NCBI GenBank assembly: GCA_977020255.1
Contig: CDROCS010000817.1
Location: 434,001-498,000 of the forward strand
Source: Obrimoposthia wandeli
Taxonomy: Eukaryota
DNA: 64,000 nucleotides
Direction: 5' to 3'
Below, one piece after another: positions 1 through 64,000 of this stretch (positions are counted from its first letter, which is position 1; every line of letters starts with the position of its first letter). The notes under the pieces were generated by a model that searched no databases, was not told the DNA's origin, and saw only the letters and a list, made by a program, of their open reading frames with translations. A program made the position numbers and the translations under genes.

Positions 1-1260
1 AATCAAGCAAAGGTATTAAAGATAGAAGATGAAGAACGTCAAGTTAAGACATTAGGAATTCAGTGGGATTCTCAAGAAGATTATTTCACTTTTAAAACCA
101 AAGTGAATTATGGGATCAATATTAGTAAGTAAGAATTCATAAGTATCTTGTCAACAGTATTTGACCCTTCGGGGTTCGTGAGTCCATTTATTGTGAAAGC
201 GAAGATATTAATGCAAAGAGTATGGTTAAATAGATTAGGTTGAAATGAAAAAATAGAAGGAGATTTAAAGAAAGATATAATGATGTGGCTTTCACAGTGC
301 AAAGAACTATGGGATAAATGGGATAAATAAATGGGACAAATTCCGTGATGGGTCGAAATAAAACCGGATAAAGAGAGAAAGAGAGAGATTCAAGTCTTCG
401 TAGATGCTTCATCAGAAGCTTTTTGATCCGTTGTATATCTAAGGATAAGGAAAAAAGGGAAAGTAAAAGTTATGTTAATAACAGCGAAATCGAAAGTAGC
501 ACCGTTGAAAACAGTGAATATTCTGAGATTGGAATTGATGACCGCATGTGAATGGATTAAACTGGCAAAGGTTATAGCGAGATCGTGGAATGAGAAGATG
601 ATTAGAAGATGATATTCTGGACAGATAGTGAAGATGTGTGAAACAACGGATATAAATCAATAGAGCCATGTACCGACAAAAGAAAACCCATCAGATATTT
701 TATCGCGAGGAGTAAGTGTGAATGAATGTGTTTCTATCAGGAAGTGGTGGAAAGGACCAGAATATTTAAAGAAAACAAAAGAAATGTGGCTGAGAAATAG
801 TAAATTCGAGAAATTTGAGGATACGGAGAAGAAAGTATGTACCTTATTGACATACAAGATGAAATCTGTACATGAAGAAATACTAGAAGTTAAATATATT
901 CTAGTTTGACAAGAATAAAAAGAATAAGAGCTTGGATAGATCGATTTATAGATAATTGTAGAAAGAAAAAAGAAGTGCGGATAAAAGGAAAATTAAAACA
1001 TAAAGAAATGAAAGTATGAGTAAGCTGATCAAAGAAGATCAAAGGAAATATTTTCAGATAGAAAGGAAAAGTTTAATGAAGACTGAGGAAGTCTTGAAAA
1101 ATAACAAAATTTTAAAGTTAAGCCCATATATAGATGAAGGAGGGATTTTAAGAACAAACTCCAGATTAATTCATGCTGAATTCCTAAACTATGAAAACAA
1201 TTTCTCAGTGATATTGTCAGATGAAGGATGGCTAGCAAGGTTAGTAGTGAGTATGTCCAC
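1..1260 (+). pseudogene. BEL/Pao LTR retrotransposon pol relic (RT end, RNase H, pre-integrase region)
   Basis: Frameshifted translation gives KTLGIQWD, LSTVFDPSGFVSPFIVKAKILMQ, FVDASSEA, AKSKVAPLKTVNILRLEL, PTKENPSDILSRG, WWKGPEYL and KLSPYIDEGGILRTNSRL, all characteristic BEL/Pao pol motifs; internal stops; runs off window start. Confidence 0.88.
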
Positions 1261-1269
1261 AAAATATTC

Positions 1270-1545
1270 CCATGATATAACAATAATCATTAGGCAAGGT
1301 TACTTTTTCATGATTGTAGGTATTTATAAATTTGTGTCATATTCTGAGAAGACAGTCTAATTTTCCAATTATATATATTGGTTGTTCAATTGCTGATGTG
1401 ACTTGAGTATTTTCCTTAAAGAGAAGTATTTTTATGTAATTTTAAAAAAGGATTCGTCTAGAATTGTTACGCTTGACCCAGTGTCAATTAAAGGTTTAAG
1501 TTTGTACTCATTAATTTCTACTTTTACATATGTTCATCTATCATT
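1270..1545 (-). pseudogene. Degraded retroviral-type aspartic protease (retropepsin)
   Basis: Minus strand reads YVKVEINEYKLKPLIDTGSSVTILDESFF (DTG at 1477-1485), then after a frameshift TQVTSAIEQPIYIIGKLDCLLRI and a distal YCYIMG segment; stops present. Confidence 0.72.
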
Positions 1546-1699
1546 ATTTTTATCATTTATTGTACATATCTTGGTGCACTTGAGTTTGGAATTATTGTTT
1601 TATTTTTGTATGTTTCTAAATCAGGATATTATGAAGATTCTGTTTTTTTTAAATTTTGACGTCTGTTATTCTTTTAAATTTGTTTCTCACATTTCGTTT

Positions 1700-2745
1700 G
1701 ATAATAGATTTATTGTATTTTGATGATGATTAAAAATAAGATATTTTACTAAAAAAAAGAAACATCCTAAGATTAATTTCCATGTTAATCCACCAACTTT
1801 TTAAAATATAATTGTAGATAAAATTTCATTTAACAAAATTTTAAGCATATATCCCGACTAATCCAGAAAATTCTTAATCAAAAATTTTAAAAATTCCCCA
1901 TATATTTGAAATTTTTTTGAGTAGCTGTTATAAAATAATTGAGACAAATAACTCCATCTGGTACGGATATTTTTATGACTTGGGTTAAAATTCTGTATCT
2001 TATTGTGGAAATAAAATTTATTTCTTAATTTGTATATGTCTTCTTGTTTATAAATTCATTTTGTAAAAAACAAAAGCTCATTATCTGGTTGTATGTCAAT
2101 ATTTTTATTGAAACCGGTTAATTATAATTTTAGTGGTTTGGCAACTATGTCTCTTCTTGGAAGCTAGATCCAAAAATATTCTGAGATTTGGTAATGGGAT
2201 GTCATTATGTTTGAACAATTTGTTTATTTTATGTTAAATGAGTTAAAGAGTATAATTCTAATGATTGACTCAACGAATAATGATTCTTGTAAGAAATTGG
2301 TAATTCTTTAATACATTTTTTGTGATGTGTTAAATATCACTTTTTGACATTGAGAAGTGTATTACACTTCTCCCATTACTTTTCCAAAAGTACCATCAGC
2401 TAAGGGTAACATTGGTGTTATTAATTCCGAATAAGTAACGATAATTGTCTATTTTGTTGCTAAAATCTCATGATTTAATTTACAATCATTCATTATTCTT
2501 TTTCGGTATATTCCTTATATGTCCTTTGTGATAAAATAATAATCTATTTTTTTGTCAAATTTAATTGATGTAGATTTTTCATTATGTATTTTTTGTTACT
2601 TAAATATATTCATTTATAAATTGTTGTGTACATAGAGTGTCCACGACGGGATTCCTCTTTCTTTTTTATTAATCTCATTCCTGAACCAGTAGACATTAGT
2701 AGACATTAAAATAGTTGTAGTTAATTTTTTTAATTTTTCCAGTAC
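1700..2745 (-). pseudogene. Degraded C-terminal half of a class III viral fusion glycoprotein, homologous to the glycoprotein of the LTR element at 28.8-39.4 kb
   Basis: Reads KIDYYF..NDCKLNHEI..PMLPLADGTFGKVMGEV (2365-2415)..CSNIMTSHYQISEYFWI (2168-2217), versus KIDFYY..RDCQLNKEI..PLLPLDEGVFAKTMGEV..CSNIMAPEYQMTNNLWI in ORF 30877-33834. Continues into WGIFK..FSGLVGIY and GGLTWKLILGCFFFLVKYLIF, resembling a membrane-proximal/TM region. Confidence 0.8.
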
Positions 2746-2772
2746 AATATCATCACCATTTTCAATCATAAA

Positions 2773-3148: not shown

Positions 3149-4163
3149 ATGACAACTGCATACAGTAAATCCAAATTATGTTTGTTTGATAGACCAGCAA
3201 CTCAAATTGTAATTGAGATAGATATTTTGAAGATATTTATCCCATAAATACAATTAACGAAAAAAATCTATCTGCAATTGAATTTAAAATTCCAGGTTAT
3301 CAGATCTTGATTTGAATGATACATTTTTACATGTAAAAATTTAAGTCGTTAAAAAGAATGATGCACCATTAAATGAAGCTGATAATATTACACCAACTAA
3401 TTTCATGTTTCAGACACTGTTTAGAAACTTGGGAGTTTCATTGAATTCTGAGAAAATAGAAGGTGGTAATGATATGTATACTGTAAAATCAATGATAAAA
3501 ACCATTCTTAATTATGGGACCGATACTAAAGAGACATTCCTTTCATGCATTTGATATGACTCGGATGCAGATGAACATAAAAAGTAGATTTCTCGTTCTA
3601 CTAAGTTTGAAATGTGTGGTTCAATTTGTGCAGATTTCGTTGACCAAACCTAAATATATTTTGTCTGATATTGATGTGAGATTGAAATTTGTAATTAATA
3701 ATCTTCAAGTAAGCCTTACATCTGAAAATATAGAAGCTAGGATTCAATTTATAGATGCAAAATTAAAGGTTAGACGTATACGTGTTGAACAATCTGTGCT
3801 TATGGCACATAATATTGGTTTAGAAACTCAAAATGTGATTTATTCATATAAAGTAGACAAAGCACATACATATGTTAAAGGCTCAATGGCTTTTTATAAA
3901 GACAATATATTTGGTGATGAAGTACTACCTAAATTTGTACTTTTTGATTTTCAAACTAGCTCAAAATTATATGGTACTCAAAAATCTGATTCTTCAATAT
4001 TCAATCATTTTGATATTAATACAATGACATACTCTAGAAATACGGATTTCTATGAAACATATAAAGTAGATTTCGAAAATAATTGTTTTACTTTGGCTTA
4101 TGTATAATCCATCATTAGAAACATGGGATATTTATATAAGTACATAAACAATGGTATAACACC
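3149..4163 (+). pseudogene. Polinton/Maverick major capsid protein, 5' part (interrupted by solo LTR)
   Basis: MTTAYSKSKLCLFDRPATQIVIE..DLNDTFLHVK..TPTNFMFQTLFRNLGVSLN..ILNYGTDTKE..SDIDVRLKF..AKLKVRRIRVEQSVLMAHNIGL..DNIFGDEVLPKF..FNHFDIN matches the MCP pattern; several frameshifts and stops. Confidence 0.85.
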
Positions 4164-4601
4164 TGTTAGGATTGGGTTTTGTTAAAATTAAATAATTAAG
4201 TCGAATTTATACTAAAATAAAAATCCTTGAAAACAAGGTTAAAATTAAATAAAATTGAAAATTAGAAGTAAAATATTAAAGTAAAAGGAAAATTGAATAT
4301 TAGAGGACCACGAAGGTCGTGTGTGATGTGTAGGTATATATTGAAGTTTATATCTAACAAAAGGGCCCAAAAAAGATATAGCTCTGAAGATAAGTCATTA
4401 CAAGAAAGAAGATTAATTAGAAAAAGGAAATTTAAAAGAAGAAGTACAAACCGAAATCCAGTCGACGTCAGCAGTCACGTCCCGACAGCTGTTCCTGAAG
4501 TGAGAAAATTAATTAATTTAGTTGAAATAAATACTTTCCGCAGCGAACCAGAAGATTGATTGACAGACCACGTCACCGGGGAAATCAACAGAGCAGTAGA
4601 C

Positions 4602-7630: not shown

Positions 7631-8159
7631 CCATAATGAAAATTTAGGATAAAGTTCACTCTTATCAGTTAAGAAATGTGGTTTTTAACACACACATACA
7701 CTATTTTATGTGAAATTTAAACTAAAGTTCACTCTTATCAGTTAATGAATGTATTACGTAATCACACACATACTATTTTATGTGAAATTTAGATCAAAGT
7801 TTTTCCTAGGCTTACACATTTATAGAATTATGATAAAATTTCTTTAAATAACTTCAATTATATATTAAAATAAAAAATAAAATAAGAAAGAAGTCAGAGA
7901 ATAATACAAAATTAAACACATTTATTATGTAATTTCATAATATCATCTTCAAACTTAAGTGAATAACATTTACAAAGTAAGAAAGTCCATTCTTTATACA
8001 TTCTTTTCGTTTCAACGACTAAGTTACAACGAAATTAATAGAAAATTAGTAAAAATATTAATTTATTTGAATATTTGAATGAGAGTTTGAATAAATGAGA
8101 GGTAGAATGAATGTAAATGAATAAAATTATGCATGCAAGTATGAATGTCATTTACAAGT

Positions 8160-10030
8160 AAGAGTCTTAGCAAGTGAATGTAATTTTAAAATAAGAGTGT
8201 CGATAGTTTGATTGAATGCAAGTGTAATTTAGACTATAAGTAAATTAAAATAGAGTTTTCGTTGAATAAATTATAGTTAGATTCAATGCAAGTATGAATG
8301 CAAGTGAATGATAGTATGAATTTCAATACAAGTAAGTGTCTTAGCAAGTGAATGTAATTTTAAAAATAAGAGTGTCGATAGTTTGATTGAATGCAAGTGT
8401 AATTTAGACTATAAGTAAATTAAAATAGAGTTTACGTTGAATAAATTATAGTTAGACTGAATGCAAGTATGAATGCAAGTGAATGATAGTTTGAATTTCA
8501 ATACAAGTAAGTGTCTTAGCAAGTGAATGTAATTTTAAAAATAAGAGTGTCGATAGTTTGATTGAATGCAAGTGTAATTTAGACTATAAGTAAATTAAAA
8601 TAGAGTTTTCGTTGAATAAATTATAGTTAGATTGAATGCAAGTATGAATGCAAGTGATTGATAGTATGAATGTCAATACAAGTAAGTGTCTTAGCAAGTG
8701 AATGTAATTTAAAAATAAGAGTGTCGATAGTTAGATTGAATGCAAGTGTAATTTAGACTATAAGTAAATTAAAATAGAATTTTCGTTGAATAAATTATAG
8801 TTAGATTGAATGCGAGTATGAATGCAAGTGATTGTTAGTATGAATGTCAATACAAGTAAGTGTCTTAGCAAGAGAATGTAGTTTTAAAAATAAGAGTGTC
8901 GATAGTTTGATTGAATGCAAGTGTAATTTAGACTATAAGTAAATTAAAATAGAGTTTTCGTTGAATAAATTATAGTTAGATTGAATGCAAGTATGAATGC
9001 AAGTGAATGATAGTATGAATTTCAATACAAGTAAGTGTCTTAGCAAGTGAATGTAATTTTAAAAATAAGAGTGTCGATAGTTTGATTGAATGCAAGTGTA
9101 ATTTAGACTATAAGTAAATTAAAATAGAGTTTTCGTTGAATAAATTATAGTTAGATTGAATGCAAGTATGAATGCAAGTGAATGATAGTTTGAATTTTCA
9201 ATACAATTAAGTGTCTTAGCAAGTGAATGTAATTTAAAAATAAGAGTGTCGATAGTTAGATTGAATGCAAGTGTAATTTAGACTATAAGTAAATTAAAAT
9301 AGAATTTTCGTTGAATAAATTATAGTTAGATTGAATGCAAGTATGAATGCAAGTGAATGATAGTATGAATTTCAATACAAGTATGTGTCTTAGCAAGTGA
9401 ATGTAGTTTTAAAAATAAGAGTGTCGATAGTTTGATTGAATGCAAGTGTAATTTAGACTATAAGTAAATTAAAATAGAGTTTTCGTTGAATAAATTATAG
9501 TTAGATTGAATGCAAGTATGAATGCAAGTGATTGATAGTATGAATGTCAATACAAGTAAGTGTCTTAGCAAGAGAATGTAATTTAAAAATAAGAGTGTCG
9601 ATAGTTAGATTGAATGCAAGTGTAATTTAGACTATAAGTAAATTAAAATAGAATTTTCGTTGAATAAATTATAGTTAGATTGAATGCGAGTATGAATGCA
9701 TGTGATTGATAGTATGAATTTCAATACAAGTAAGTGTCTTAGCAAGTGAATGTAATTTAAAAATAAGAGTGTCGATAGTTTGATTGAATGCAAGTGTAAT
9801 TTAGACTATAAGTAAATTAAAATAGAGTTTTCGTTGAATAAATTATAGTTAGATTGAATGCAAGTATGAATGCAAGTGAATGATAGTATGAATTTCAATA
9901 CAAGTAAGTGTCTTAGCAAGTGAATGTAGTTTTAAAAATAAGAGTGTCGATAGTTTGATTGAATGCAAGTGTAATTTAGACTATAAGTAAATTAAAATAG
10001 AGTTTTCGTTGAATAAATTATAGTTAGATT
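8160..10030. repeat. 175-bp satellite-like tandem array, about 11 units (left arm)
   Basis: TAAATTAAAATAGAG recurs at 8241, 8416, 8591, 8765, 8940 and onward at 174-175-bp spacing. Confidence 0.93.
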
Positions 10031-11229
10031 GAATGTAAATGAATACAAGTATACATTCAAGTGAATGCAAATACGAGTAAGAGTTTCAGCAAGTAAATAT
10101 AAAACTATGAATGAGTGACAGTGAAAATAAGAGTGTCGATAGTTTGATTGAATGAGAGTGTAATTTAGACTAGAAATAAATTAAAATAGAGATTTAGTAT
10201 GAATAAAGTTATGTTAAGTTACAGTTAGATTAATAACAAGTAAGCAACTATAAGTAAGCAGTGATATTGAAGTATGTTAAAAATTAGAACGACTAAGTTA
10301 TGGCAAGATTAATAGAAAACAACACCAAATTTGATAGTATGAATGAAAATTAGTAAAATATTAATGTATTTGAATGTATTTGAAAGATAGTTTGAATAAA
10401 TTACAGTTAGATTGAATGCAAATGAATGCAAGTATGATTGAATGCAGGGTCAAGTACAAGTAAGAAAGAATACGCAATATGCAAGTACGAATGCCAATTA
10501 TGAATGAAAATTAGTAAATATAATAATGAATTTGAATAATTAAAATGTCTTATCTCGTTTGATAAAATTCCTTAATTGAAATATTTTAAAATAATTAGTT
10601 TAATTTAAATTCTTTATTTTTAAATAACTTGATTATACAATTATATTCGTAAATATAATTAAAATTATCATTATTCGTTTCTCTTTTTTAACTATTCGAA
10701 ACTGTTTTTATATATATACAAATTTAGTAAATTAACTCAACAACAATTTTTTTTTATTAATTACTTGATATTTTTGCCATTGTCTTATTAATATAATATG
10801 AATATTCAATTTATTTCTTCAAAAATTCATTTTATATGTTAAATAATATTCTTTATCACATTATTGTGATTTTTATCAAGTGATTTTAACCTTAAACTAT
10901 AAAAATATTTTAATTATAAAGTTAGTAGCTGTACCCCGCCCCCTGCATATAACATAAATTTCAAATATAAAGTACTATTAAGTTTATTATTTCGACATTG
11001 TGGTAAGTAATTTTGGTATTAATTGTTTTTAAACTAGATTAACTTCGTATAACCTCATTTTTTTTATCTTAAACTAAAATATATTTTAATATCCTTTTAT
11101 TATATTAATTTATTTTGCTCAAGTATTTTTAAACATTTCAATGTTATATAATAGTTTAATAAAAGTTAATCATTGAATACAAGAACACAAATTCTAATAA
11201 CTTAAAACGTATTAAAGTGAATAAATGCA

Positions 11230-20477: not shown

Positions 20478-20620
20478 ATCCCCGACCGGCTTAACCGGGC
20501 TCATCTGGGAGATGGCATACTTATATTTGACTTCGCGGTGGGCAATTGCCCACGAAGTCAGAGATAAGAAGGGAAGATTCTTCCTTTATCATGTGCCGAC
20601 GACTATCGTCGACACATGGT
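20478..20620 (+). other. Multi-hairpin element, copy 1
   Basis: Consecutive stem-loops at 20521-20567, 20569-20586 and 20591-20617; diverged homolog at 56465-56645 on the minus strand. Confidence 0.6.
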
Positions 20621-28793: not shown

Positions 28794-30657
28794 TGTTGGG
28801 GTTTCTATACGAAACTTGGTACAGATCCTCTTATGTGCGGAGGGCCCCAACGTGAGTTCGATTAGAAGCAGGTCTTAAAGTTGGTCGTGGCCTACTTAGT
28901 GTTATGGTTGCCTAATCTCTTGTACTATCTGAAGGTATTTGATTTGATGTCTCTTATTCTGAAGGGTGCAAAACAACTTGTTCTAATGTAGGAAATTGTT
29001 TATTTGTAATTCACGTAACTAACACAACAATACGTTTATGTACGTATTTCTAAAAAGTATGATAAAATTCCTAGGACTTCTGTAAGTCTCTACAAGAAGT
29101 GGGGATGAACCACGTATCGATTTTACGTTCAGGTGATTAAGCTTTTAGGTTTATTCTTCTTACTTAGGTTGGTTAATCTATAACGCAACTCTCTTAAATT
29201 TCTTCGCTCCTACTTCTTATATCTAGATAAAGTTTCTTGATTCCTTAACTCTATCTGCTGTGTGTTTGACCCCGAATTGTCCACTGTGAACAATGGGTCT
29301 CCTAAAAACCTAATTGTCAAAGATGACAATGAAAACTTACTCCGAATTGTCAACTACGGACAATGAATGAACCGAATTGTCAGCTAGGGACAATGAGTCT
29401 TACCGAATTGTCAACTAGGGACAATGAGTATTTGTCCGAATTGTCAACTAGGGACAATGAATGAACCGAATTGTCAGCTAGGGACAATGAGTCTTACGGA
29501 AAAAAGTCTGGTATAATTCCTAATTGTCGCTGGGGACAATGAATAAAATAGATGATCTTAATTGCCAACTAGGGACAATGATTAGGTTAATGAGTCAGCA
29601 ATCCTAATTGCCAGCTAGGGGCAATGAATGTGTTTACTAGGTTAAAATTTAGAATTACCAACAAGGGGTAATGAAGGTATCCTAATTGCCAACTAGGGGC
29701 AATGAATGCTCTAGTCGGTTGGCTTACCAATACGCTGCGACTAGTGCGGCTTCCGGTGCAGGATCCGTATGGAGCGCTTGCGAGTCTGGCGGAACCGTCC
29801 TCAAAGTCAACTGTAGCTTTCGACTTCTTCCGCGCTTTTCACTTCTTTCGAACCTTTCAATCTGGATACCGACTCGACTTTCAACACTGATTCGATATTC
29901 AAATATTGGTTCAACTTCAATTTCGGATTCGATATTTCAATATTGGTTCAACTTCAATTACGGATTCGATATTACAATTTGGTTCAACTTCAATTACGGA
30001 TTCGATATTACAATTTGGTTCAACTTCAATTACGGATTCGATATTACAATTTGGTTCAACTTCAATTACGGATTCGATATTACAATTTGGTTCAACTTTT
30101 CACACTGATCTAAATAATTTTAACTCTACCTATTCCCAATCACCACTTACCGATTCGTGGTCGAGGGGATTGTCTTCTGTCTAATTGCTTCTTCTTTTTT
30201 CCAGTCGACTCTGTAGTTGATTCCGTATTTGTGTTTTCTGTTTTGGCGATCTGCCTTATATAGAGGCAAGTCTGTCAATCAAATCGACAGCTGCTTAATG
30301 GTCGCGGGAATTCACTTGAATTCTTCTGGAATATATCTGAAATTTATTAACCTTATTGCACTTAAAATGTGCTTACCTTTTCCTGATTGACGTCTCTTAA
30401 TTGACGTTTCTAATTGATCCTTTTTTCTGTAATTAATTCTAAATTGTTCGCTTTTTGGGTTAATTAATTCAACTTATATACATCTCACATTATACACGAC
30501 CTTCGTGGTCCTCCTAATTTTTACCCTAACTTCCACTAATTTCAATTCTAAAACTAAAATTAATATTTAATTTAATTTTCAACCTTGCTTTCAAGGATTT
30601 TTATTTTAGTATTTAATCGACTAAAATATTTAAATTTCTTAATTCTCAAACCTAACA
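28794..30657 (-). repeat. 3' LTR of element A (1864 bp)
   Basis: Direct repeat of 37571-39435; by eye only two substitutions and one 1-bp indel; contains a degenerate ~30-bp array (29270-29700) and a 36-bp array (~29905-30100). Confidence 0.96.
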
Positions 30658-30876
30658 TACCTCGGGGGTTCCAAAAAAGTTACGTCCCCGGAACGTATCG
30701 ATTTTACTTATACAAGCCTCTGGCTGTTGATTTTAGGTTCATCCCTACAAAATCAATCATTCAACTTCAACAAACATGCCCAAAACAAAATTTCTCAAAA
30801 TCCCGGTTTTTAGTGGGAAACATAATGTATAATTTGGAGCAAGTCTCAAACCATACATTATTACTTATACACAAAA

Positions 30877-33834
30877 CTACATGAGTAAACAAGGATTAGG
30901 AAGGAAAGAAGGGAGGAAAGGATTCAACGTTGTCAATTGTCGTAAGTTAGGTCTATTGTAATTGTCGGCTGGTTCCGACTGGCCAGGTAACGTTATCCAT
31001 AGATTATTCGTCATCTGATATTCAGGTGCCATTATATTAGAGCAGCTGATTTCTTTAGTTGGAGTGTCTTTTGGAAGTAACATTCTCGTGATTGGTTCAA
31101 CAAAAAGATCTTTTAAATTATACGTTACTGCCAATTCACTCGTACATCGATCTGTTTTCCTCAACTGTACCTCTACTTTATTACACTTGTAAGTATACAA
31201 TACTTCTCCCATGGTTTTAGCAAATACTCCTTCATCCAAGGGTAATAATGGTGCTACCATGTCTGGATTCGTAATAGCTAATGCTAACTTTGTTCTTACG
31301 ATCTCTTTGTTTAGCTGGCAATCTCTTTCGATCATCATCCGATATAACTGTTCCATTTGCATCAATCCTTTATGATAATAGAAATCAATTTTATTATTAA
31401 AATACGTGTGTAGCTGCATATCTTTAGGTTTTAGCTTGGTTTCTGCCAATGCTATTGCTTCTTTGGACAAAACTATTCCTGGATAGTTTGTAGTACTAAC
31501 AGTCATTCCGCATCGCGCTTTGTTTTTCTTTTTAATAAATATCAATCCTTCTTCTATTGATGTTGCCATTAATAGTGTAGGTGTTTTTGTCATTGGAATT
31601 GGTCTTGTTTCATTGAGCAATCCCTTTCCAACTTTATTATACAGGAATCCTTCTCCATCTTTATTATACAGGAATCCTTTTATTTTTTTAAAGCTAATAT
31701 CTTTCAAAAATACTAAAGAGCATTGCTTCGGATTTATGTTATACACAATTGTGGATTCGCCTGTGAAACAAGATGTATCTGTCATTTTACATTCTGGATA
31801 CTTCATCATTAGTTGTGTCTTTTTATCAAAATTGGCGGTCCATGTTTTTAATTCGATTTTGTAAGTTACATCCATTACTAACTCGGCTACTTTGGTTCCA
31901 CGCACGTTTTTTGTTTCTCCGTCACAAGATCCATCGGCCCATCGTTGTCCGACTCTCGTGACTGTTTCGTATCGTCTCACTCCAATTTTTACATCAGGTT
32001 TGTAATTCTTGTCTACCTCTATCGTTCCCGTTCGAAATGCGTCTTCGCAATCTCTCGGCAAAACCTTATGTGCCTTGTACGGTGTGGTAGGTGTGATTTC
32101 TGACATAAAACTTCTATGGCCACAATAGAATTCGTGATAACTTGAATGGATTGAACATTCTTTCACTTCTACTTGTACTTTATCAACATCCTGATACACA
32201 AAGTAGTTTTCAACACCTTTAACTTCTAGTTTTGACGGTTGTGACTCTGGACAGTCTTCGCTGTCAAGCAGTGAATACTTTTGTCCCATCTTTGGTATGC
32301 TACAGTCGTATGCTATCAATCCTGATGCCTGTTGCATTCCCATAAACATTACTAACATCATCATCATCATTGTTGTGGACATATTTGGTTGATTGTTTCT
32401 CTCTTTCGGACGGTATTGTTTATTTTCCTTTTGACGATTCTCATGACATTGTTCGTCATCGTCTTCATTCATTTCCACAATGGTTTTAGCGTAGTCACTT
32501 AATTTTGCCCAACCTCCGTTTTCGTCAATTCGTCTCTGTAATACATTCTCTATCAAGTACATCGCTTCATTTATTCCTTGTTTGACTTCGTGAGGTTGGC
32601 TCGTTCGTTCCGTCAATTGGAAACATAGATATGTGATCGCTGTAATTAACTTTTTATTTGTAGTCTGGTTTCCACATAGTCTCGCTAAAACTTCACCGTC
32701 ATAAAATCTATCTATCGATGCATGGTATACATGATTCGCAGTCATTCTCTTTACTGCAGACATCTGTGATCTGACTGCTTTAGTCAAATTGTCTGTTATA
32801 TCGGTTGTTTCATCTCTGTACATTTTAAACAACTTCGGCTTCACTTGCCTGAGAATTCCCGTAAGTATATCTTTACTACTTGGAGTTTCCGAATTCATAT
32901 CACCTCTGATATCTTCATTCCTCTCTGCACTATACTGCTCTAATGACGCTGCTAACTGTCCAATACTTAGATGTCTCTCTTCATCAGTTTGTGGTGCAGT
33001 TAGAACATTTCGTAATATACTTTCGCCTTTTCTAGGTCTTCCAGGTCCTCTTCGAAAATACTGATACTCAGCTTGATTCTCTCCTGGATCATACGTTTCA
33101 CCATTATACTGTATATCTTGACTTGGTCCTTCTTCATGGCCAATCTCTTCATTTTGTCGCATCATTTGCTCTGCTTGTCTATCTTTGTATGCAGCATGCC
33201 AAATTGGTGAGTCCAAATCTACAATCTCGGAGACTTCGTCTTCTCCTACTAGTTGGGTTACGGTTTCGTTTTGTCGCACTTGGTTAGCTGTATCCGTGAC
33301 TTCATCTTGTCTGATTGGAATTATATCTGGTTCTGGTGGCACCTCGACCACTGGAGTTGTCAACTCATTTTCTAAATTCATGTCTTGTAATTCAGCTACG
33401 TACGGTTCTGGTGTGGATGTCTTGTTCCAAGCTTCAGCTACATCATTATCTCCGCTTTCGCTTGAACTGTCTAAAATTTCTATAGGCGTTTTTATCATTT
33501 CTAACGCAGAATTCAATATCTCGGTTAATCCTTCATTATCTACTAACTCTTGACGTCCTACAGTGATGACATCAATTTTTTCCTCTAATTCATTTCCTAT
33601 CGGATATCCACACTCGACTGGTACGTCCTCATCATCTAGTGATCTCCCTTTATAATGGAACAACATATTCATTCCATCAATTTCGAGTTTCTCGGCCAAT
33701 TTTTTTCGAATCGTTTTCATTGTTTGATACACGTTAGGTTTTTCATGTATTATCTGTCCGGAAATTAATCGAAGTGAAATTTTCATCGTTCCTTTTTGGT
33801 TTGATTTCTGTACATAACGACCATAACCTTTCAA
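30877..33834 (-). CDS. Multidomain ORF: ubiquitin-like domain, acidic linker, AT-hook, Bcl-2-like domain, internal signal sequence, truncated class III fusion glycoprotein
   Basis: 985 open codons, first ATG at 33786. Ubl MKISLRLISGQ..LFHYKGRSLDDED; RRGPGRPRK; LQRRIDENGGWAKLSDY; MMMMMLVMFMGMQQASG then LIAYDC..FYCGHRS..DGSCDG..MGEVLYTYKC..LFVEPITRML, a Cys and motif pattern like chuvirus-type G proteins. Confidence 0.88.
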   Translation of the reverse strand: MKGYGRYVQKSNQKGTMKISLRLISGQIIHEKPNVYQTMKTIRKKLAEKLEIDGMNMLFHYKGRSLDDEDVPVECGYPIGNELEEKIDVITVGRQELVDNEGLTEILNSALEMIKTPIEILDSSSESGDNDVAEAWNKTSTPEPYVAELQDMNLENELTTPVVEVPPEPDIIPIRQDEVTDTANQVRQNETVTQLVGEDEVSEIVDLDSPIWHAAYKDRQAEQMMRQNEEIGHEEGPSQDIQYNGETYDPGENQAEYQYFRRGPGRPRKGESILRNVLTAPQTDEERHLSIGQLAASLEQYSAERNEDIRGDMNSETPSSKDILTGILRQVKPKLFKMYRDETTDITDNLTKAVRSQMSAVKRMTANHVYHASIDRFYDGEVLARLCGNQTTNKKLITAITYLCFQLTERTSQPHEVKQGINEAMYLIENVLQRRIDENGGWAKLSDYAKTIVEMNEDDDEQCHENRQKENKQYRPKERNNQPNMSTTMMMMMLVMFMGMQQASGLIAYDCSIPKMGQKYSLLDSEDCPESQPSKLEVKGVENYFVYQDVDKVQVEVKECSIHSSYHEFYCGHRSFMSEITPTTPYKAHKVLPRDCEDAFRTGTIEVDKNYKPDVKIGVRRYETVTRVGQRWADGSCDGETKNVRGTKVAELVMDVTYKIELKTWTANFDKKTQLMMKYPECKMTDTSCFTGESTIVYNINPKQCSLVFLKDISFKKIKGFLYNKDGEGFLYNKVGKGLLNETRPIPMTKTPTLLMATSIEEGLIFIKKKNKARCGMTVSTTNYPGIVLSKEAIALAETKLKPKDMQLHTYFNNKIDFYYHKGLMQMEQLYRMMIERDCQLNKEIVRTKLALAITNPDMVAPLLPLDEGVFAKTMGEVLYTYKCNKVEVQLRKTDRCTSELAVTYNLKDLFVEPITRMLLPKDTPTKEISCSNIMAPEYQMTNNLWITLPGQSEPADNYNRPNLRQLTTLNPFLPSFLPNPCLLM

Positions 33835-33849
33835 TAATCCTCGGGGTAC

Positions 33850-35919
33850 TTATTTGTAACCCAAGTTATCATGGCTATGTTTAACCAATTCTGCTCGCAC
33901 TTCTTCCAATCGGTGCACTTTAATTGTTTGCAATTTGGCCAAAACTTCTGGAGCTTCACTCGTTTCATCTAACGGTTGATTCAACGTTTCCTTAGCTTCA
34001 CTAATTATCTTTTTTACATTTTCCATACTCATAGCATTTCTCGCTGCTTCTACATGATCAGTCATAGGTTGTGCGTTACACGTTTTCTCTATTGGTGTCT
34101 CATACGCTTCTAATATTCTATTCATTAAATCGTTCATCTCTTCTCTCGAGTGTAGACTTTTCTCTTGTTTCGACAACGTAGATGAATTCGCCATCTTTGT
34201 ATGTGGTGAATCTTTAATTATTCCCAACATTCGTTCAAATTTACTATCACTATCTTCAAAATCTATTTCGCGTCGAAGCTCGGTTTCGCGATTCCTATCA
34301 CTGTCATCGCTTACATAACTAAAATTTCCTTTCGGTTTCGGCGAACTCTCACGACTACTTGTCTTGTCGACATTATTATTATTATATCTACCAGAATTAT
34401 TATATCTCTCAGCTCCTTGCTGTCCTACGTAATTATTGTATCTCTCAGCTCCTTGCTGTCTGTCTGCATAGTTATTGTATCTACCTGGTGACTGTTGTCT
34501 ATCTGTATACTGATTATTCAGTCTCCATGGCTGTGGAGTATATCCACCACCTCTATTCCATGGCGGAGGTGAATTATATCCTCTATAATTATTTCCAAAA
34601 TTATTATTACCGAAATTATTATTTCCAAATCTGTTAGTTCCGAACTCTTTGTTTCTCGTACAATCTCTCGAATAGTGACCCATTTGTTTACACGTGTAAC
34701 ACATTATTCTCCCTCGAATATCTATCTTATTTTGTTCATCTTCGAACTGCACTCGACGACTATTCTGTCTATTATCATAGCGCCCTTTAAAATCATTTCT
34801 TCGGAAATTCGATTCAAAACCGCTTCCTCGATTATTGAATCTTCCGTCGCTATTTCCTGTATTATTTCCAAATCGAGAGTCACTTCGCTCTCCTCTGTTG
34901 GTGTTATAATTCCTATCGTCTCCTCTCCAAGGTTGGCGATTTCCTGAATTATCTCTATTAAATCTATTCCTGGAATCATCTCTATTTCTACTCCACGAAT
35001 CATTATTATTTCTACCTCTTGAATCATCTCGATTCCTGTTCCAAGACTCACTATTATTTCTACCTCTGGAATCATCTCGATTCCTACTTCGGAAATTATC
35101 TCTATTTCCGTTACTGGATTCATCTACTTTTTCAAACTTATTTTGTCCATAATTTCGATTCTGAAAATTACTCGGTTCTGTTTTATTCACAAAGACCTTT
35201 GTCTTATCGTCGTCAGCTGCAGTCATTGCGTAAATTGCCAATGCTGCATTATTTTTTATATTTTTCTCAATCTCTCTCGCCTTTCGTACGGCGTTATCAA
35301 AATCATTTGTATCTGATACTGCTAATAACACTTTAATATCCTTTTTCAATCCTCCTCTAAATATATCTAACAAAACCTCTGCCATTTCATTTTGGTTTCG
35401 GTCATTTTCCGCTACTTGTGCTTCTTGAGGTACAGGAATACCGTCCTGATTTCTCATTATTCTTCTTGGGTACGCTCTTGCGGCCAAGGTTCTCAAAACA
35501 TACGCGTATTCATTCACGCCTTCATCATGTTTCTGTTTCCGTTCTCTCATGAGTCGCTTATTTACTTTGGCTAAGTCTCCTAATACCAATTTTCCAATAA
35601 AAGCATTTTCTAACGTTGGCCAATCTATGCGTTCTGCTTCTGTCAAATGTTTATACACTTCAAGTGCTAATCCGGTTAAATGTGCCTGTACTCGGACACA
35701 TTTTTCTTTATCGTTCCATCCTTGAACATCCGCACAACTCGAATATTCTGCGAGGAAGTCACAAATACTTTCCTCATCTCCTTTAAACTTTGTAATCTGC
35801 AATGATCCTGAAAAATTGGGTCTCAACGTCGCATTTAAAGCTTGTGCCAACTGCTCGGCATTCATTTCACCTACATTATTTCCTGCATTAATATCTGGTG
35901 GAGCTCCTTGGTGAGCCAT
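33850..35919 (-). CDS. gag: Ty3/Gypsy-type Gag, 689 aa from the first ATG
   Basis: KFKGDEESICDFLAEYSSCADVQGWNDKEK capsid-like region, RKQKHDEGVNEY, RDDSRGRN repeats, CCHC knuckle CYTCKQMGHYSRDC at 34660-34701. Confidence 0.92.
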   Translation of the reverse strand: MAHQGAPPDINAGNNVGEMNAEQLAQALNATLRPNFSGSLQITKFKGDEESICDFLAEYSSCADVQGWNDKEKCVRVQAHLTGLALEVYKHLTEAERIDWPTLENAFIGKLVLGDLAKVNKRLMRERKQKHDEGVNEYAYVLRTLAARAYPRRIMRNQDGIPVPQEAQVAENDRNQNEMAEVLLDIFRGGLKKDIKVLLAVSDTNDFDNAVRKAREIEKNIKNNAALAIYAMTAADDDKTKVFVNKTEPSNFQNRNYGQNKFEKVDESSNGNRDNFRSRNRDDSRGRNNSESWNRNRDDSRGRNNNDSWSRNRDDSRNRFNRDNSGNRQPWRGDDRNYNTNRGERSDSRFGNNTGNSDGRFNNRGSGFESNFRRNDFKGRYDNRQNSRRVQFEDEQNKIDIRGRIMCYTCKQMGHYSRDCTRNKEFGTNRFGNNNFGNNNFGNNYRGYNSPPPWNRGGGYTPQPWRLNNQYTDRQQSPGRYNNYADRQQGAERYNNYVGQQGAERYNNSGRYNNNNVDKTSSRESSPKPKGNFSYVSDDSDRNRETELRREIDFEDSDSKFERMLGIIKDSPHTKMANSSTLSKQEKSLHSREEMNDLMNRILEAYETPIEKTCNAQPMTDHVEAARNAMSMENVKKIISEAKETLNQPLDETSEAPEVLAKLQTIKVHRLEEVRAELVKHSHDNLGYK

Positions 35920-36454
35920 ATCTTCAACTATATCGTCTTCAACTATTCCTTCAATATTATTTACTTGAACTTCTTCAATCACTACTGGATTGGCAATTTC
36001 AATTTCTTCTGGGTTTTGAACTTCAAGATTATCAATTTCTTCTGGGTTTATGTCACCAAATAACTCAGTCAGCTCAAAACTGTCGGTTGAAACTGCTGAT
36101 TGATCAACGTCTCTTTCTGATACGTTTTCTTCGACTCTAGTCTTTTCTGTTACTTTGTTATCTGTTTGGGGAACCTGTTCAATTCGGTCAACTTTATTAT
36201 TATTTGTCTCTTCCTTGGGAATCTGGCTTTGTCTTCTAGTATTAAACGTGGGTCCTTTTCTATTATCCGTTGTCTTATCAATTATGTATTCGTTTACGAT
36301 ATCAATTTACTTATTATTTTTTATCTTATTTCACAATTCTTATTTTACGATTTTTTATCTCTTTAATTAGTTCGAGGACAGAGTCTCCCGACTTAACTTA
36401 TTCAATTAATTACTTCGAGTATCAATCCACTCGATTCTCACTTATCAAATTTAC

Positions 36455-37200
36455 TGACTCGAGGAACAAATCCACTCGACTTCTCAAAAACTTATCGAAT
36501 TCTTACTTCGAGGAACAAATCTACCCGATTTCTCAAAAACTTATCAAATTCTTAACTTCGAGGAACAAATCTACCCGATTTCTCAAAAACTTATCAAATT
36601 CTTAACTTCGAGGAACAAATCTACCCGATTTCTCAAAAACTTATTAAATTCTTAACTTCGAGGAACAAATCTACCCGATTTCTCAAAAACTTATCAAATT
36701 CTTAACTTCGAGGAACAAATCTACCCGATTTCTCAACACTTATCAAATTCTTAACTTCGAGGAACAAATCTACTCGATTTCTCAAAACCTATCAAATTCT
36801 TAACTTCGAGGAACAAATCTACTCGATTTCTCAAAACTTATCAAATTCTTAACTTCGAGGAACAAATCTACCCGATTTCTCAAAAACTTATCAAATTCTT
36901 AACTTCGAGGAACAAATCTACTCGATTTCTCAAAACTTATCAAATTCTTAACTTCGAGGAACAAATCTACCCGATTTCTCAAAAACTTATCAAATTCTTA
37001 ACTTCGAGGAACAAATCTACTCGATTTCTCAAAACTTATCAAATTCTTAACTTCGAGGAACAAATCTACCCGATTTCTCAAAAACTTATCAAATTCTTAA
37101 CTTCGAGGAACAAATCTACTCGATTTCTCAAAACTTATCAAATTCTTAACTTCGAGGAACAAATCTACTCGATTTCTCAACACTTATCAAATTCTTATCT
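36455..37200. repeat. 49-50-bp tandem array (about 15 units) in the 5' leader of element A
   Basis: AACTTCGAGGAACAAATCTACCCGATTTCTCAAAAACTTATCAAATTCTT at 36554, 36604, 36654 and onward. Confidence 0.95.
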
Positions 37201-37515
37201 CAATTTACTTATATCTTCTTCTGAAACTTATTCTAAATTTGCTTATATCTTCTTCTGAAACTTATTCTCAATTGTCTATATTCTTCTGCTGAAACTTATT
37301 CTCAATTTATCTGAAACTTATTCTCAATTTATCTGAAACTTATTCTTAATATCTGAAACTTATTCTTAATATCTGAAACTTATTCTTAATATCTGAAACT
37401 TATTCTTAATATCTGTACTTATTTTATTTACCTGAAACTTATTCTCAATTATCTGAAACTTATCCGAACTTATTCTATTTACCTGAAACTTATTCTCAAT
37501 TATCTGAAACTTATC
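37200..37515. repeat. ~20-bp tandem array in the leader next to the PBS
   Basis: CTGAAACTTATTCTCAATTTAT-like units; equivalent array at ~59875-60110 in copy B. Confidence 0.9.
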
Positions 37516-37543
37516 TACGTGAATTCGCTGTGTCCGATGAGCT

Positions 37544-37562
37544 ATCCTCACTCGGGGCACCA
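37544..37562 (-). other. Primer-binding site complementary to the 3' end of elongator tRNA-Met
   Basis: TGGTGCCCCGAGTGAGGAT, 8 nt after the LTR end; the eukaryotic elongator tRNA-Met 3' end (..ATCCTCACACGGGGCACCA) matches at all but one position. Confidence 0.85.
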
Positions 37563-37570
37563 CTTTAATA

Positions 37571-39435
37571 TGTTGGGGTTTCTATACGAAACTTGGTACA
37601 GATCCTCTTATGTGCGGAGGGCCCCAACGTGAGTTCGATTAGAAGCAGGTCTTAAAGTTGGTCGTGGCCTACTTAGTGTTATGGTTGCCTAATCTCTTGT
37701 ACTATCTGAAGGTATTTGATTTGATGTCTCTTATTCTGAAGGGTGCAAAACAACTTGTTCTAATGTAGGAAATTGTTTATTTGTAATTCACGTAACTAAC
37801 ACAACAATACGTTTATGTACGTATTTCTAAAAAGTATGATAAAATTCCTAGGACTTCTGTAAGTCTCTACAAGAAGTGGGGATGAACCACGTATCGATTT
37901 TACGTTCAGGTGATTAAGCTTTTAGGTTTATTCTTCTTACTTAGGTTGGTTAATCTATAACGCAACTCTCTTAAATTTCTTCGCTCCTACTTCTTATATC
38001 TAGATAAAGTTTCTTGATTCCTTAACTCTATCTGCTGTGTGTTTGACCCCGAATTGTCCACTGTGAACAATGGGTCTCCTAAAAACCTAATTGTCAAAGA
38101 TGACAATGAAAACTTACTCCGAATTGTCAACTACGGACAATGAATGAACCGAATTGTCAGCTAGGGACAATGAGTCTTACCGAATTGTCAACTAAGGACA
38201 ATGAGTATTTGTCCGAATTGTCAACTAGGGACAATGAATGAACCGAATTGTCAGCTAGGGACAATGAGTCTTACGGGAAAAAAGTCTGGTATAATTCCTA
38301 ATTGTCGCTGGGGACAATGAATAAAATAGATGATCTTAATTGCCAACTAGGGACAATGATTAGGTTAATGAGTCAGCAATCCTAATTGCCAGCTAGGGGC
38401 AATGAATGTGTTTACTAGGTTAAAATTTAGAATTACCAACAAGGGGTAATGAAGGTATCCTAATTGCCAACTAGGGGCAATGAATGCTCTAGTCGGTTGG
38501 CTTACCAATACGCTGCGACTAGTGCGGCTTCCGATGCAGGATCCGTATGGAGCGCTTGCGAGTCTGGCGGAACCGTCCTCAAAGTCAACTGTAGCTTTCG
38601 ACTTCTTCCGCGCTTTTCACTTCTTTCGAACCTTTCAATCTGGATACCGACTCGACTTTCAACACTGATTCGATATTCAAATATTGGTTCAACTTCAATT
38701 TCGGATTCGATATTTCAATATTGGTTCAACTTCAATTACGGATTCGATATTACAATTTGGTTCAACTTCAATTACGGATTCGATATTACAATTTGGTTCA
38801 ACTTCAATTACGGATTCGATATTACAATTTGGTTCAACTTCAATTACGGATTCGATATTACAATTTGGTTCAACTTTTCACACTGATCTAAATAATTTTA
38901 ACTCTACCTATTCCCAATCACCACTTACCGATTCGTGGTCGAGGGGATTGTCTTCTGTCTAATTGCTTCTTCTTTTTTCCAGTCGACTCTGTAGTTGATT
39001 CCGTATTTGTGTTTTCTGTTTTGGCGATCTGCCTTATATAGAGGCAAGTCTGTCAATCAAATCGACAGCTGCTTAATGGTCGCGGGAATTCACTTGAATT
39101 CTTCTGGAATATATCTGAAATTTATTAACCTTATTGCACTTAAAATGTGCTTACCTTTTCCTGATTGACGTCTCTTAATTGACGTTTCTAATTGATCCTT
39201 TTTTCTGTAATTAATTCTAAATTGTTCGCTTTTTGGGTTAATTAATTCAACTTATATACATCTCACATTATACACGACCTTCGTGGTCCTCCTAATTTTT
39301 ACCCTAACTTCCACTAATTTCAATTCTAAAACTAAAATTAATATTTAATTTAATTTTCAACCTTGCTTTCAAGGATTTTTATTTTAGTATTTAATCGACT
39401 AAAATATTTAAATTTCTTAATTCTCAAACCTAACA
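37571..39435 (-). repeat. 5' LTR of element A (1865 bp)
   Basis: Sense strand starts TGTTAGG and ends CCCCAACA, followed by the PBS. Confidence 0.96.
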
Positions 39436-59300: not shown

Positions 59301-59829
59301 TCTGCAATTTATTAAAGTTTGTCCAACTTTAAGGAAGCTTTTACATCACCACCTTTATTGACATAAAATTAAAGGTTTAACCTCAAAAGTTAAAGCCGAC
59401 AGTAGAGTTAATTTGATTTGAAAAATCTATAACGTGAGCTTATTCTCGAGTCACAGGAACAACTCTAAAATCTCGATCACCCTTAGCGTAAAATCGATAC
59501 GTGGTTCATCCCCACTTGTGTAGAGACTTACAGAAGTCTTAGGAATTTTTACCATACTTTTTAGAAGATACGTACATAAACGTATTGTTGTGTTTTAGTC
59601 TAGTGTGTTACCAATAAACGATTTCCTACATTAGAAAACGTTGTTTTAAACCCTTCAGAATAAGAGACGTCAAACAAACACCTTCAGATAAGAAATAGAG
59701 ATAGGCAACCATAGCACTAAGTAGGCCACGACCAACTTTAAGACCTGCTTCTATTCGAACTCACGTTGGGGCCCTCCGCACACAAGAGGATCTATACAAG
59801 TCTCGTATAGAAACCCCAACATATTAAAG

Positions 59830-59848
59830 TGGTGCCCCGAGTGAGGAT
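59830..59848 (+). other. Primer-binding site (elongator tRNA-Met) of element B
   Basis: TGGTGCCCCGAGTGAGGAT after the same TATTAAAG spacer as in element A. Confidence 0.85.
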
Positions 59849-60658
59849 AGCTCGTCGGACACAGCGAATTCACATATAATAAGTTTCAGATAAATTGAGA
59901 ATAAGTTTCAGATAAATAGAATAAGTTTCAGATAAATTGAGAATAAGTTTCAGATAAATAGAATAAGTTTCAGATAAATTGAGAATAAGTTTCAGACAAA
60001 TTGAGAATAAGTTTCAGCAGAAGAATATAGACAATTGAGAATAAGTTTCAGAAGAAGATATAAGCAAATTTAGAATAAGTTTCAGAAGAAAATATAAGTA
60101 AATTGAGATAAGAATTTGAATAAGTTGAGAAATCGAGTAGATTTGTTCCTCGAAGTTAAGAATTTGATAAAGTTGAGAATCGAGTGGATTGATACTCGAA
60201 GTAATTAATTGAATAGGTTAAGTCGGGAGACGTGTCCTCGAACTAATTAAAGAGATAAGAAATCGTAAAATAAGAATTGTGAAATAAGGTAAAATAATAA
60301 ATAAATTGATATCGTAAACGAATACATAATTGATAAGCCAACGGATAATAGAAAAGGACCCGCGTATAATACTAGAAGACAAAGTCAGATTCCCCAGGAA
60401 GAGATAAATAATAATTAAGTTAACCGAATTGAACAGGTTCCCCAAACAGATAACAAAGTAACAGAAAAGACTAGAGTCGAAGAAAACGTATCAGAAAGAG
60501 ACGTTGATCAATCAGCGGTTTCAACCGACAGTTTTAATTTGACTGAATTATTTGGTGACATAAACCCAGAAGAATTTTAAATTGCCAATCCAGTAGTGAT
60601 TGAGGAAGTTCAATTGAATAATCTTGAAGAAATAGTTGAAGAGGATATAGCTGAAAAT

Positions 60659-63600
60659 ATGGCTCACCCAGGAGCTCAAGCAGATAATAATGCAGGAAAT
60701 AATGTAGGTGACATGAATGCCGAACAGTTGGCACAAGCCCTAAATGCGACGTTGAGACCCAACTTTTCAGGATCATTGCAGATTACAAAGTTTAAAGGAG
60801 ATGAGGAAAGTATTTGTGACTTCCTCGCAGAATATTCGAGTTGTGCAGATGTTCAAGGATGGAACGATAAAGAAAAATGTGTCCGAGTACAGGCACACTT
60901 AACCGGATTAGCACTTGAAGTGTATAAACATTTGACAGAAGCAGAACGTTTAGACTGGCCAACGTTGGAAAATGTTTTTATTGGAAAATTGGTATTAGGA
61001 GACTTAGCCAAAGTAAATAAGCGACTCATGAGAGAACGGAAACAGAAACATGATGAAGGCGTGAATGAATACGCGTATGTTTTGAGAACCTTGGCCGCAA
61101 GAGCGTACCCAAGAAGAATAATAAGAACTCCAGAAGGTATTCCTGTAGCTCAAGAAGCACAAGTAGCGGAAAATGACCGGAACCAAAATGAAATGGCAAA
61201 GGTTTTGTTAGATATATTTAGAGGAGGACTGAAAAAAGATATTAAAGTATTATTGGCTCTATCGGATACAAATGATTTTGATAACGCCGTGCGAAAGGCG
61301 AGAGAGATTGAGAAAAATATAAAAAATAACGCAGCATTGGCATTTTACGCAATGACTGCAGGTGACGACGATAAGACAAAGGTATTCGTGAATAAAACAG
61401 AACCGAGTAATTTTCAGAACCGAAATTATGGACAAAATAAGTTTGAAAAAGTAGATGAATCCAGTAACGGAAACAGAGATAATTTCCGAAGTAGGAATCG
61501 AGATGATTCCAGAGGTAGAAATAATAGTGAGTCTTGGAACAGGAATCGAGGTGATTCAAGAGGTAGAAATAGTAATGATTCGTGGAATAGAAATAGAGAT
61601 GATTCCAGGAATAGATTTAATAGAGATAATTCAGGAAATCGCCAACCTTGGAGAGGAGACGATAGGAATTATAACGCAAACAGAGGAGAGTGAAGTGACT
61701 CTCGATTTGGGAATAATACAGGAAGTAGTGACGGAAGATTCAATAATCGAGGAAGCGGTTTTGAATCGAATTTCCGAAGAAATGATTTTAGAGGACGCTA
61801 TGATAATAGACAGAATAGTCGTCGAGTACAGTTCGAAGATGAACAAAATACGATAGATATTCGAGGGAGAATAATGTGTTACACGTGTAAACAAATGGGT
61901 CACTATTCGAGAGATTGTACGAGAAGTAAAGAGTTCGGAACTAACAGATTTGGAAATAATAATTTCGGTAATAATAATTTTGGAAATAATTATAGAGGAT
62001 ATAATTCACCCCCGCCATGGAATAGAGGTGGTGGATATACTCCACAGCCACGGAGACCGAATAATCAGTATACAGATAGACAACAGTCACCAGGTAGATA
62101 CAATAACTATGCAGACAGACAGCAAGGAGCTGAGAGATACAATAATTACGTAGGACAGCAAGGAGCTGAGAGATATAATAATTCCGGTAGATATAATAAT
62201 AATAATGTTGACAAGACAAATAGTCGCGAGAGTTCGCCGAAACCGAAAGGAAATTTTAGTTATGTAAACGATGACAGCGATAGGAATCGCGAGACCGAAC
62301 TTCGACGCGAAATAGATTTTGAAGATAGTGATAGTAAATTTGAACGAATGTTGGGAATACTTAAAGATTCACCACATACAAAGATGGCGAATTCATCTAC
62401 GTTGTCGAAATAAGAAAAAAGTCTACACTCGAGAGAAGAGATGAATGATTTAATGAATCAAATACTAGAAGCGTATGAGACACCAATAGAGAAAACGTGT
62501 AACGCACAACCTATGACCGATCATGTAGAAGCAGCAAGAAATGCTACGAGTATGGAAAATGTAAAAAAGATAATTAGTGAAGCTAAGGAGACGTTGAATC
62601 AACCGTTAGACGAAACGAGTGAAGCTCCAGAAGTTTTGGCCAAATTACAAACAATTAAAGTGCACAGATTGGAAGAAGTGCGAGCAGAATTGGTTAAACA
62701 TAGTCATGATAACTTGGGTTACAAAGAAGTACCACGAGGATTATTGAAAGGTTATGGTCGCTACGTACAGAGATCAAACCAAAAAGGAACGATGAAAATT
62801 TCACTTCGATTAATTTCCGGACAGATAATACATGAAAAACTTAACGTGTATCAGACAATGAAAACTATTCGAAAAAAGTTGGCCGAGAAACTTGAAATTG
62901 ATGGAATGAATATGTTGTTCCATTATAAAGGGAGATCACTAGATGATGAGGACGTACCAGTCGAGTGTGGATATCCGATAGGAAATGAATTAGAGGAAAA
63001 AATTGATGTCATCACTGTAGGACGACAAGAGTTAGTAGATAATGAAGGATTAACGGAGATATTGAACTCTGCGTTAGAAATGATAAAAACGCCTATAGAA
63101 ATTTTAGACAGTTCAAGCGAAAGCGGAGATAATGATGTAGCTGAAGCTTGGAACAAGACATCCACACCAGAACCGTACGTAGCTGAATTACAAGACATGA
63201 ATTTAGAAAATGAGTTGACAACTCCAGTGGTCGAGGTACCACCAGAACCAGATATAATTCAAATCAGACAAGATGAAGTCGCGGATACAGCTAACCAAGC
63301 GAGACAAACCGAAAACGTAACCCAACTAGTAGGAGAAGACGAAATCTCCGAAATTGTAGATTTAGATTCACCAATTTGGCATGCTGCATACAAAGATAGA
63401 CAAGCAGAGCAGATGATGCGACAAAATGAAGAGATTGGCCATGAAGAAGGACCAAGTCAAGAGATACAGTATAATGGTGAACCGTATGATCCAGGAGAGA
63501 ATCAAACTGAGTATCAGTATTTTCGAAGAGGACCTGGAAGACCTAGAAAGGATGGAAGTATATTACGAAATGTTTTAACTGCACCACAAACTGATGAGGA

Positions 63601-64000
63601 GAGACATCTAAGCATTGGACAGTTAGCAGCGTCATTAGAGCAGTATAGTGCAGAGAGGAATGAAGATATCAGAGGTGATATGAATTCAGAAGCTCCAAGT
63701 AGTAAAGATATACTTACGGGAATTCTCAGGCAAGTGAAGCCGAAGTTGTTCAAAATGTACAGAGATGAAACAACCGATATAACAGACAATTTGACTAAAG
63801 CAGTTAGATCACAAATGTCTGCAGTAAAGAGAATGACTGCGAATCATGTATACCATGCATCAATAGATAGATTTTACGACGGTGAAGTTTTAGCGAGATT
63901 ATGTGGAAACCAGACTACAAATAAAAAGTTAATTACAGCAATCACATATCTATGTTTCCAATTGACGGAACGAACGAGCCAACCTCACGAAGTCAAACAA
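60659..64000 (+). pseudogene. gag: Gag-Ubl-AT-hook-Bcl-2-like polyprotein of element B with two premature stops; incomplete at window end
   Basis: Collinear with element A; TGA at 61691 (CGA in A) and TAA at 62411 (CAA in A); GAA at 62726 where A has its gag stop; frame then open to 64000. Confidence 0.9.

Follow-up and report, generated by a model that had tools for sequence, protein, structure and literature searches.

The window analysed here is a stretch of 64,000 nucleotides from Obrimoposthia wandeli (contig CDROCS010000817.1, positions 434,001 to 498,000), and close to its left end the minus strand carries a decayed fusion glycoprotein followed by a retropepsin. Does this relic preserve the layout of a single LTR element in which env stands before pol, and if so, to which family did that element belong? 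The original prediction, made from the sequence of the window, took the relic for a decayed relative of element A, a truncated LTR element on the same strand (Table 1).

Table 1. Position of the relic, its neighbours and the A-family copies in the window.
Feature	Position	Strand	Remarks
3' part of a 5.66-kb BEL/Pao insertion (whole element: G000 C817:429624-435282)	1..1282	+	7-nt inverted ends
Decayed retropepsin, family B relic	1283..1533	-	BEL insertion cuts near the C-terminal end
Decayed C-terminal half of Monjiviricetes/gB-type fusion glycoprotein with membrane anchor, family B	1732..2750	-	anchor at about 1900-1732
Decayed gene, homologous to an ORF of Polinton-like elements	3164..4161	+	beyond the relic's upstream end
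Element A	28794..39435	-	LTRs 28794-30657 and 37571-39435, 99.8% identical; 4-bp target-site duplication
ORF2 of A: Ubl, Bcl-2-like, truncated fusogen	30877-33849	-	
Deletion junction of A	30984..30989	-	6-nt microhomology; loss of 12.75 kb compared with a full-length copy
gag of A	33850-36306	-	
Second A-family copy	59461..64000	+	runs off the window end

The relic forms one collinear piece, a decayed Monjiviricetes-type fusogen with its anchor and then a retropepsin. Positions 2559-2158 (minus strand) match ORF2 of element A with 39% identity over 141 aa (E 6e-22), and the full-length A-family polyprotein carries the match on to 1681 (31% over 320 aa, E 2e-35), taking in the hydrophobic C-terminal part and anchor that are absent from A. 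When stops are read as X, the relic frame matches PF24664 (Monjiviricetes_fusion) at E 1.6e-10, whereas the gag-asp_proteas match in this frame is weak (E 0.019, below the cut-off). The sequence LIDTGSSVTIL, which contains the DTG motif, lies at 1491-1459 in the same frame as the fusogen, and the protease of family B (below) matches 1542-1276 with 48% identity over 95 aa (E 3e-15; the runner-up match in the window has E 0.22). Protein alignments and Pfam thus bear out the pairing of a glycoprotein homolog, complete with the hydrophobic part that A lacks, and a retropepsin behind it. The two had been placed about 60 codons apart within positions 1270-2745; the spacing is indeed close, but 66 codons separate the end of the hydrophobic segment from the first protease strand (82 from the catalytic Asp), and the true limits are 1283-2750.

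The relic abuts a BEL fragment, as had been proposed: Pfam identifies Peptidase_A17 of the BEL/Pao neighbour at window 1-840 (plus strand, E 9e-31), and the whole 5.66-kb element retains remnants of gag, protease, RT and RNase H. Past this element the relic copy picks up again at C817:429622, 5 nt further along the B element (77.8% identity over 907 nt). At about C817:429622-428300 lie the protease end together with the RT N-terminal half (55% over B residues 1390-1685) and a fragment of integrase (B residues 2183-2277); a C-terminal piece is also left, and internal deletions separate the parts. The BEL element is unrelated and arrived later, splitting the relic within its protease, and the two together give a clean nested-insertion history. 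Since the RT and integrase remnants resume beyond BEL, the relic copy itself has the order env-PR-RT-IN. Close to where its gag region begins, the BEL element encodes a ubiquitin domain (PF00240, E 5e-08; L025:6996-7343). On the other side of the relic, the decayed gene homologous to an ORF of Polinton-like elements has no Pfam match; its context suggests a capsid.

In two families of the genome, one ORF flanked by near-identical LTRs encodes Gag-env-PR-RT-RH-IN in this order, and a further natural frame of 1,072 aa runs from the env tail to IN. Family B, to which the relic belongs, is compact. One B copy measures 13.9 kb between LTRs that agree at 1437 of 1440 aligned columns; another has a single ORF of 2,889 aa, which encodes Gag, fusogen (residues 619-1270; PF24664, E 5e-91), protease (1305-1395), RT (1614-1771), RNase H (1861-1964) and integrase (2073-2245). 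Hydrophobic segments at 610-639 and 1178-1198 flank the ectodomain. Ubl, Bcl-2-like, BIR, RING and phosphatase domains have no match in family B, which is a compact sister family and no Burro (see below) in the strict sense. Searching the genome with the natural env-tail and protease frame of B returned protein hits at 96-100% in all 135 cases scored. The order env-PR-RT is present in each of ten B loci that were fetched (the five top DNA hits and five chosen from the 135 for long frames); integrase is displaced in one of them and not reached in another. Upstream of the 3' LTR, family B also has an ORF of its own for a DEDD exonuclease of 391 aa (L081:329-1501; RNase_T, E 6e-07), and ORFs of this type are reported from rotifer LTR elements (PMC5408684). 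Window positions 20495-20787 are a decayed piece of a family-B LTR (71% identical). The second A-family copy of the window is interrupted just behind its integrase by a B-like element with a 1,693-aa frame (L092, G000 C817:508233-515311).

Family A is larger. Its full-length element spans 24.2 kb with a 4-bp target-site duplication and LTRs identical at 2297 of 2302 aligned columns, and has a single ORF of 5,496 aa between stop codons (5,361 if counted from the first Met) in the order Gag-Ubl-Bcl2-like-env-PR-BIR-RING-PR-RT-RH-IN followed by two phosphatase domains. Pfam detects, in sequence, CCHC, fusogen (PF24664, E 7e-85), protease, BIR, RING, second protease, RT, RNase H, integrase and two DSPc stretches, after which come several hydrophobic segments. 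This order is kept in all six full-length loci fetched, which were picked for long frames (neither the A nor the B loci are random samples); the window's second copy, which continues for a further 7.9 kb past the window with env-PR-BIR-RING-PR-RT-RH-IN, is the same as far as integrase. The autonomous form of the family had been predicted as Gag-[Ubl, Bcl-2-like]-fusogen-PR-RT-RH-IN. Up to the protease this agrees with the six loci and the second copy; in the remainder the order holds, but two proteases flank a BIR-RING module and the phosphatase domains follow integrase. Env thus lies upstream of pol in the relic copy, in 7/7 A loci and in 10/10 B loci, and none of these loci has pol before the glycoprotein.

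The added domains of family A are identified with differing confidence. BIR and RING lie between env and RT in six of six copies (PF00653, E 6e-10; PF13920, E 4e-11). Support for the Ubl after Gag is weak but consistent: ubiquitin variants match at E 0.012-0.06 and one repeat protein at E 2.7e-12, while Pfam has no match for the Ubl of A. The segment before env is only suggested to be Bcl-2-like, by a helical model (pLDDT 42) for which eight of the ten top Foldseek rows are Bcl-2-fold proteins (best E 0.11, none at E<=0.001); an Atlas search on it favoured DUF6532. The two phosphatase domains occupy ORF residues of about 4275-4590 (L013, G000 C6912). The HCx5R motif is kept in domain 1 of all six A copies and is absent from domain 2 in all five of these copies in which the site was read. 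Between the polyprotein end and the 3' LTR of this element (G000 C6912:35965-37140) there are two short ORFs of 178 and 101 aa that look RING-like by eye.

Element A itself (PF24664 in its glycoprotein, E 2e-61) is 97.7% identical to the full element over 5,967 nt and derives from it by a single internal deletion of 12.75 kb, from mid-fusogen to near the 3' end, with a 6-nt microhomology at the junction; the original prediction had a deletion from mid-fusogen to the 3' end. Its glycoprotein finds 95 scored hits in the genome, all at 98-100% (96-100% spanning the A and B searches). The junction is spanned by one of 40 scored hits, namely A itself, with only the best candidates scored; A is therefore not regarded as a multicopy non-autonomous family, although rare sisters are possible. 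Programmed readthrough between gag and ORF2 of A was also rejected, the intervening stop being a private lesion of A that is missing from the full-length copies read.

Protein identity between A and B is 47% over pol and 36% over env-PR, and at the DNA level they share only three patches (64-67%); hence they are sister families and not one. Each of the 15 cysteines in the fusogen region of A has its counterpart in B at one constant offset, with the proteins about 36-41% identical. That the relic is an old copy of A's own family, showing what A has lost, would fit its 31-39% protein identity to A's fusogen, anchor included. Blastn, however, finds no match of the relic to an A-family element, while its DNA match to family B is 77%; B has one protease after env where A has two flanking BIR-RING, and at the DNA level the two families share just the three patches at 64-67%. 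Membership of family A, which the original prediction had assumed, is consequently ruled out as extremely improbable: the relic is family B, without Ubl, Bcl-2-like or BIR, and the part missing from A is supplied by A's own full-length copies. It is still less credible, to the point of being negligible, that glycoprotein and protease are two separate insertions adjoining by chance. The surroundings, a nest of BEL, Polinton-like and LTR fragments, and the 22 stops in the 486 codons of the relic make such an accident conceivable, but the relic aligns with family-B copies over 1,565 columns in a single collinear alignment with no gap above 24 nt, so that no LTR end or separate insertion lies between env and PR. 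A genome DNA search with the relic, in which 40 candidates were scored, gave 39 other loci with 75-78% identity over all or most of the env-PR boundary. The continuous alignment to family B excludes separate insertions, and the one-insertion origin proposed at the outset stands.

Relatives outside this genome have the same layout. Among 105 public long polyproteins, 14 carry env before PR-RT-RH-IN in one ORF, and in six of these 14 two proteases separate env from RT. A segment of ~90 aa between PR and RT, on which Pfam is silent, is conserved in A, B and the 14 public relatives; from its position it may be dUTPase-like. An RT-RH tree was calculated with FastTree from 67 rows (37 others, either short or redundant hits from a single arachnid, were left out); no named Burro protein is among the 105 public hits or in the tree. 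A and B group with the 14 env-upstream polyproteins and two unlabelled rows (SH-like 99), and this group sits in an unresolved node with Caenorhabditis Cer sequences; P0047, a protein with a Pfam-labelled env, falls outside the group. Eight of the env-upstream polyproteins (P0001, P0002, P0004-P0006, P0008, P0009, P0013) have an extra protease-like domain after integrase. Ankyrin repeats occur in P0010, P0026 and P0040, and an Ig-like domain in P0019.

The relic is thus very probably a broken copy of a Ty3/gypsy LTR element with the fusogen in frame between gag and pol, whose intact relatives likely make enveloped particles from a self-cleaving polyprotein. From established knowledge of viral polyproteins, Gag would be made in the cytosol, and the hydrophobic segment just before the ectodomain would act as an internal signal sequence that is cut by signal peptidase (the putative segment of A lies under the hydropathy threshold used). 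The cysteine-rich ectodomain would then enter the ER, the anchor would bring the chain back to the cytosol, and the retropepsin directly after the anchor would free RT, RH and IN. By sequence (PF24664) the glycoprotein is of HSV/gB type and chuvirus-related; as to a putative class III fold, its ectodomain has no match in a PDB sequence search, and a single-sequence AlphaFold model reaches pLDDT 32. With one ORF, Gag, Env and Pol should be made in equal amounts, which is unusual for retroelements. This, and the many broken copies, could mean that the order is real but that the fusogen is now anchored cargo without a role in entry, or that most pol is made from a message from which env has been spliced or processed out. 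We consider this unlikely: the putative signal segment, the anchor and every cysteine persist in two families that are only 36-41% identical, and the 14 public relatives across the clade retain env as well. Under the preferred reading of a self-cleaving polyprotein, the two proteases of family A would flank and free the IAP module, which would guard the host cell against apoptosis; this role is modelled on the IAP of Burro1, reported to protect planarian stem cells (as cited in PMC13465017).

Env before pol is already published, and A and B are two further families with this order. The premise that env lies downstream of pol accordingly has exceptions of the same kind (PMC6431247, PMC13524379). 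In planarian Burro (GYPSM1), whose polyproteins measure 4,873 and 5,140 aa, Gag is accompanied by ubiquitin/SUMO-like and BCL2 domains, by an env that sits in frame behind BCL2 and ahead of PR, by BIR and by a dUTPase-like segment; it is described as the first element with env placed in frame between gag and pol (PMC6431247). Family A resembles it in having one ORF of ~5,000 aa in a giant LTR element, Gag with CCHC, Ubl and then a putative BCL2-like domain, a mononegavirus-type env in frame between BCL2 and PR, BIR, and PR-RT-RH-IN (PMC6431247). It differs in size (24.2 kb against >30 kb), in having one CCHC by Pfam, in the two proteases that flank BIR-RING, and in the two phosphatase domains after IN, which the accessible text of PMC6431247 does not mention. 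MATH and ankyrin, present in S. mediterranea Burro1, have no Pfam match across the whole A-family ORF; in another planarian, too, the element's ORF is without MATH (PMC6431247). Family B differs from Burro more strongly, being without Ubl, BCL2 and BIR cargo and, at 13.9 kb, not giant.

GAG-ENV-POL elements with a gB-type env have been described from Nematoda, Bryozoa and Platyhelminthes; nine flatworm elements are listed, six of them from Schmidtea mediterranea, and an earlier nematode report is credited (PMC13524379). These errantiviruses share with A and B a Ty3/gypsy pol, a chuvirus-related glycoprotein before pol, multicopy state and a place near Cer on pol trees. A and B are set beside them by description and not by a match to named rows, and the main text of PMC13524379, in its accessible parts, makes no mention of a single, in-frame or fused ORF, of ubiquitin or of Bcl-2. 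In mosquitoes, LTR elements of the BEL/Pao group have taken up a glycoprotein of the same class, the Chuviridae type (PMC7642597), but their pol is BEL/Pao and not Ty3/gypsy. The presence of A and B in one genome, both with recent copies, indicates that the core gag-env-pol design is separable from the added domains.

The same genome has multicopy Polinton-like elements (also L095-L112) that carry intronless genes for a BIR-RING IAP, TBP and a dual-specificity phosphatase. One such stretch, C900:641094-647630 (L063:94-6631), encodes an integrase and an A32-like ATPase, with the BIR, RING, TBP and DSPc genes on one strand. Among the best 20 of 150 BIR matches, a search that would miss spliced host IAPs, the Polinton-borne IAPs are the closest relatives found of the A-family IAP module: 18 of the 20 loci adjoin a TBP, ATPase or integrase gene of Polinton type, the remaining two presumably being host survivin and BIRC6. 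The A-family linker plus RING matches 13 of the 20 at 37-56% (best E 9e-37), compared with E 1.5e-12 for the best public protein. The A-family and Polinton-like phosphatases are 30% identical, which is weak evidence of kinship, and a search for a host phosphatase donor returned only A-family copies in the 25 loci fetched of 150 matches. It is possible, and we propose it tentatively, that the IAP module, and perhaps the phosphatase, passed in one direction or the other between the Burro-like family and a Polinton-like DNA virus in this genome, as cargo exchanged between a retroelement and a DNA virus; family B would then be the cargo-free form of the lineage. Capture of the IAP by both from a host gene may be an alternative. 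Literature searches found no phosphatase cargo after integrase in such elements and no IAP in Polintons (PMC8097293 and PMC6338049 included, by word in their accessible text); the original Burro paper, the Burro1 IAP paper or their supplements may cover both. Were such an IAP of Polinton origin, a transposon gene that benefits the host would go back to a DNA virus. Between the relic and element A, the window also holds a large inverted-repeat element (7705-14348) with 175-nt tandem arrays in both arms.
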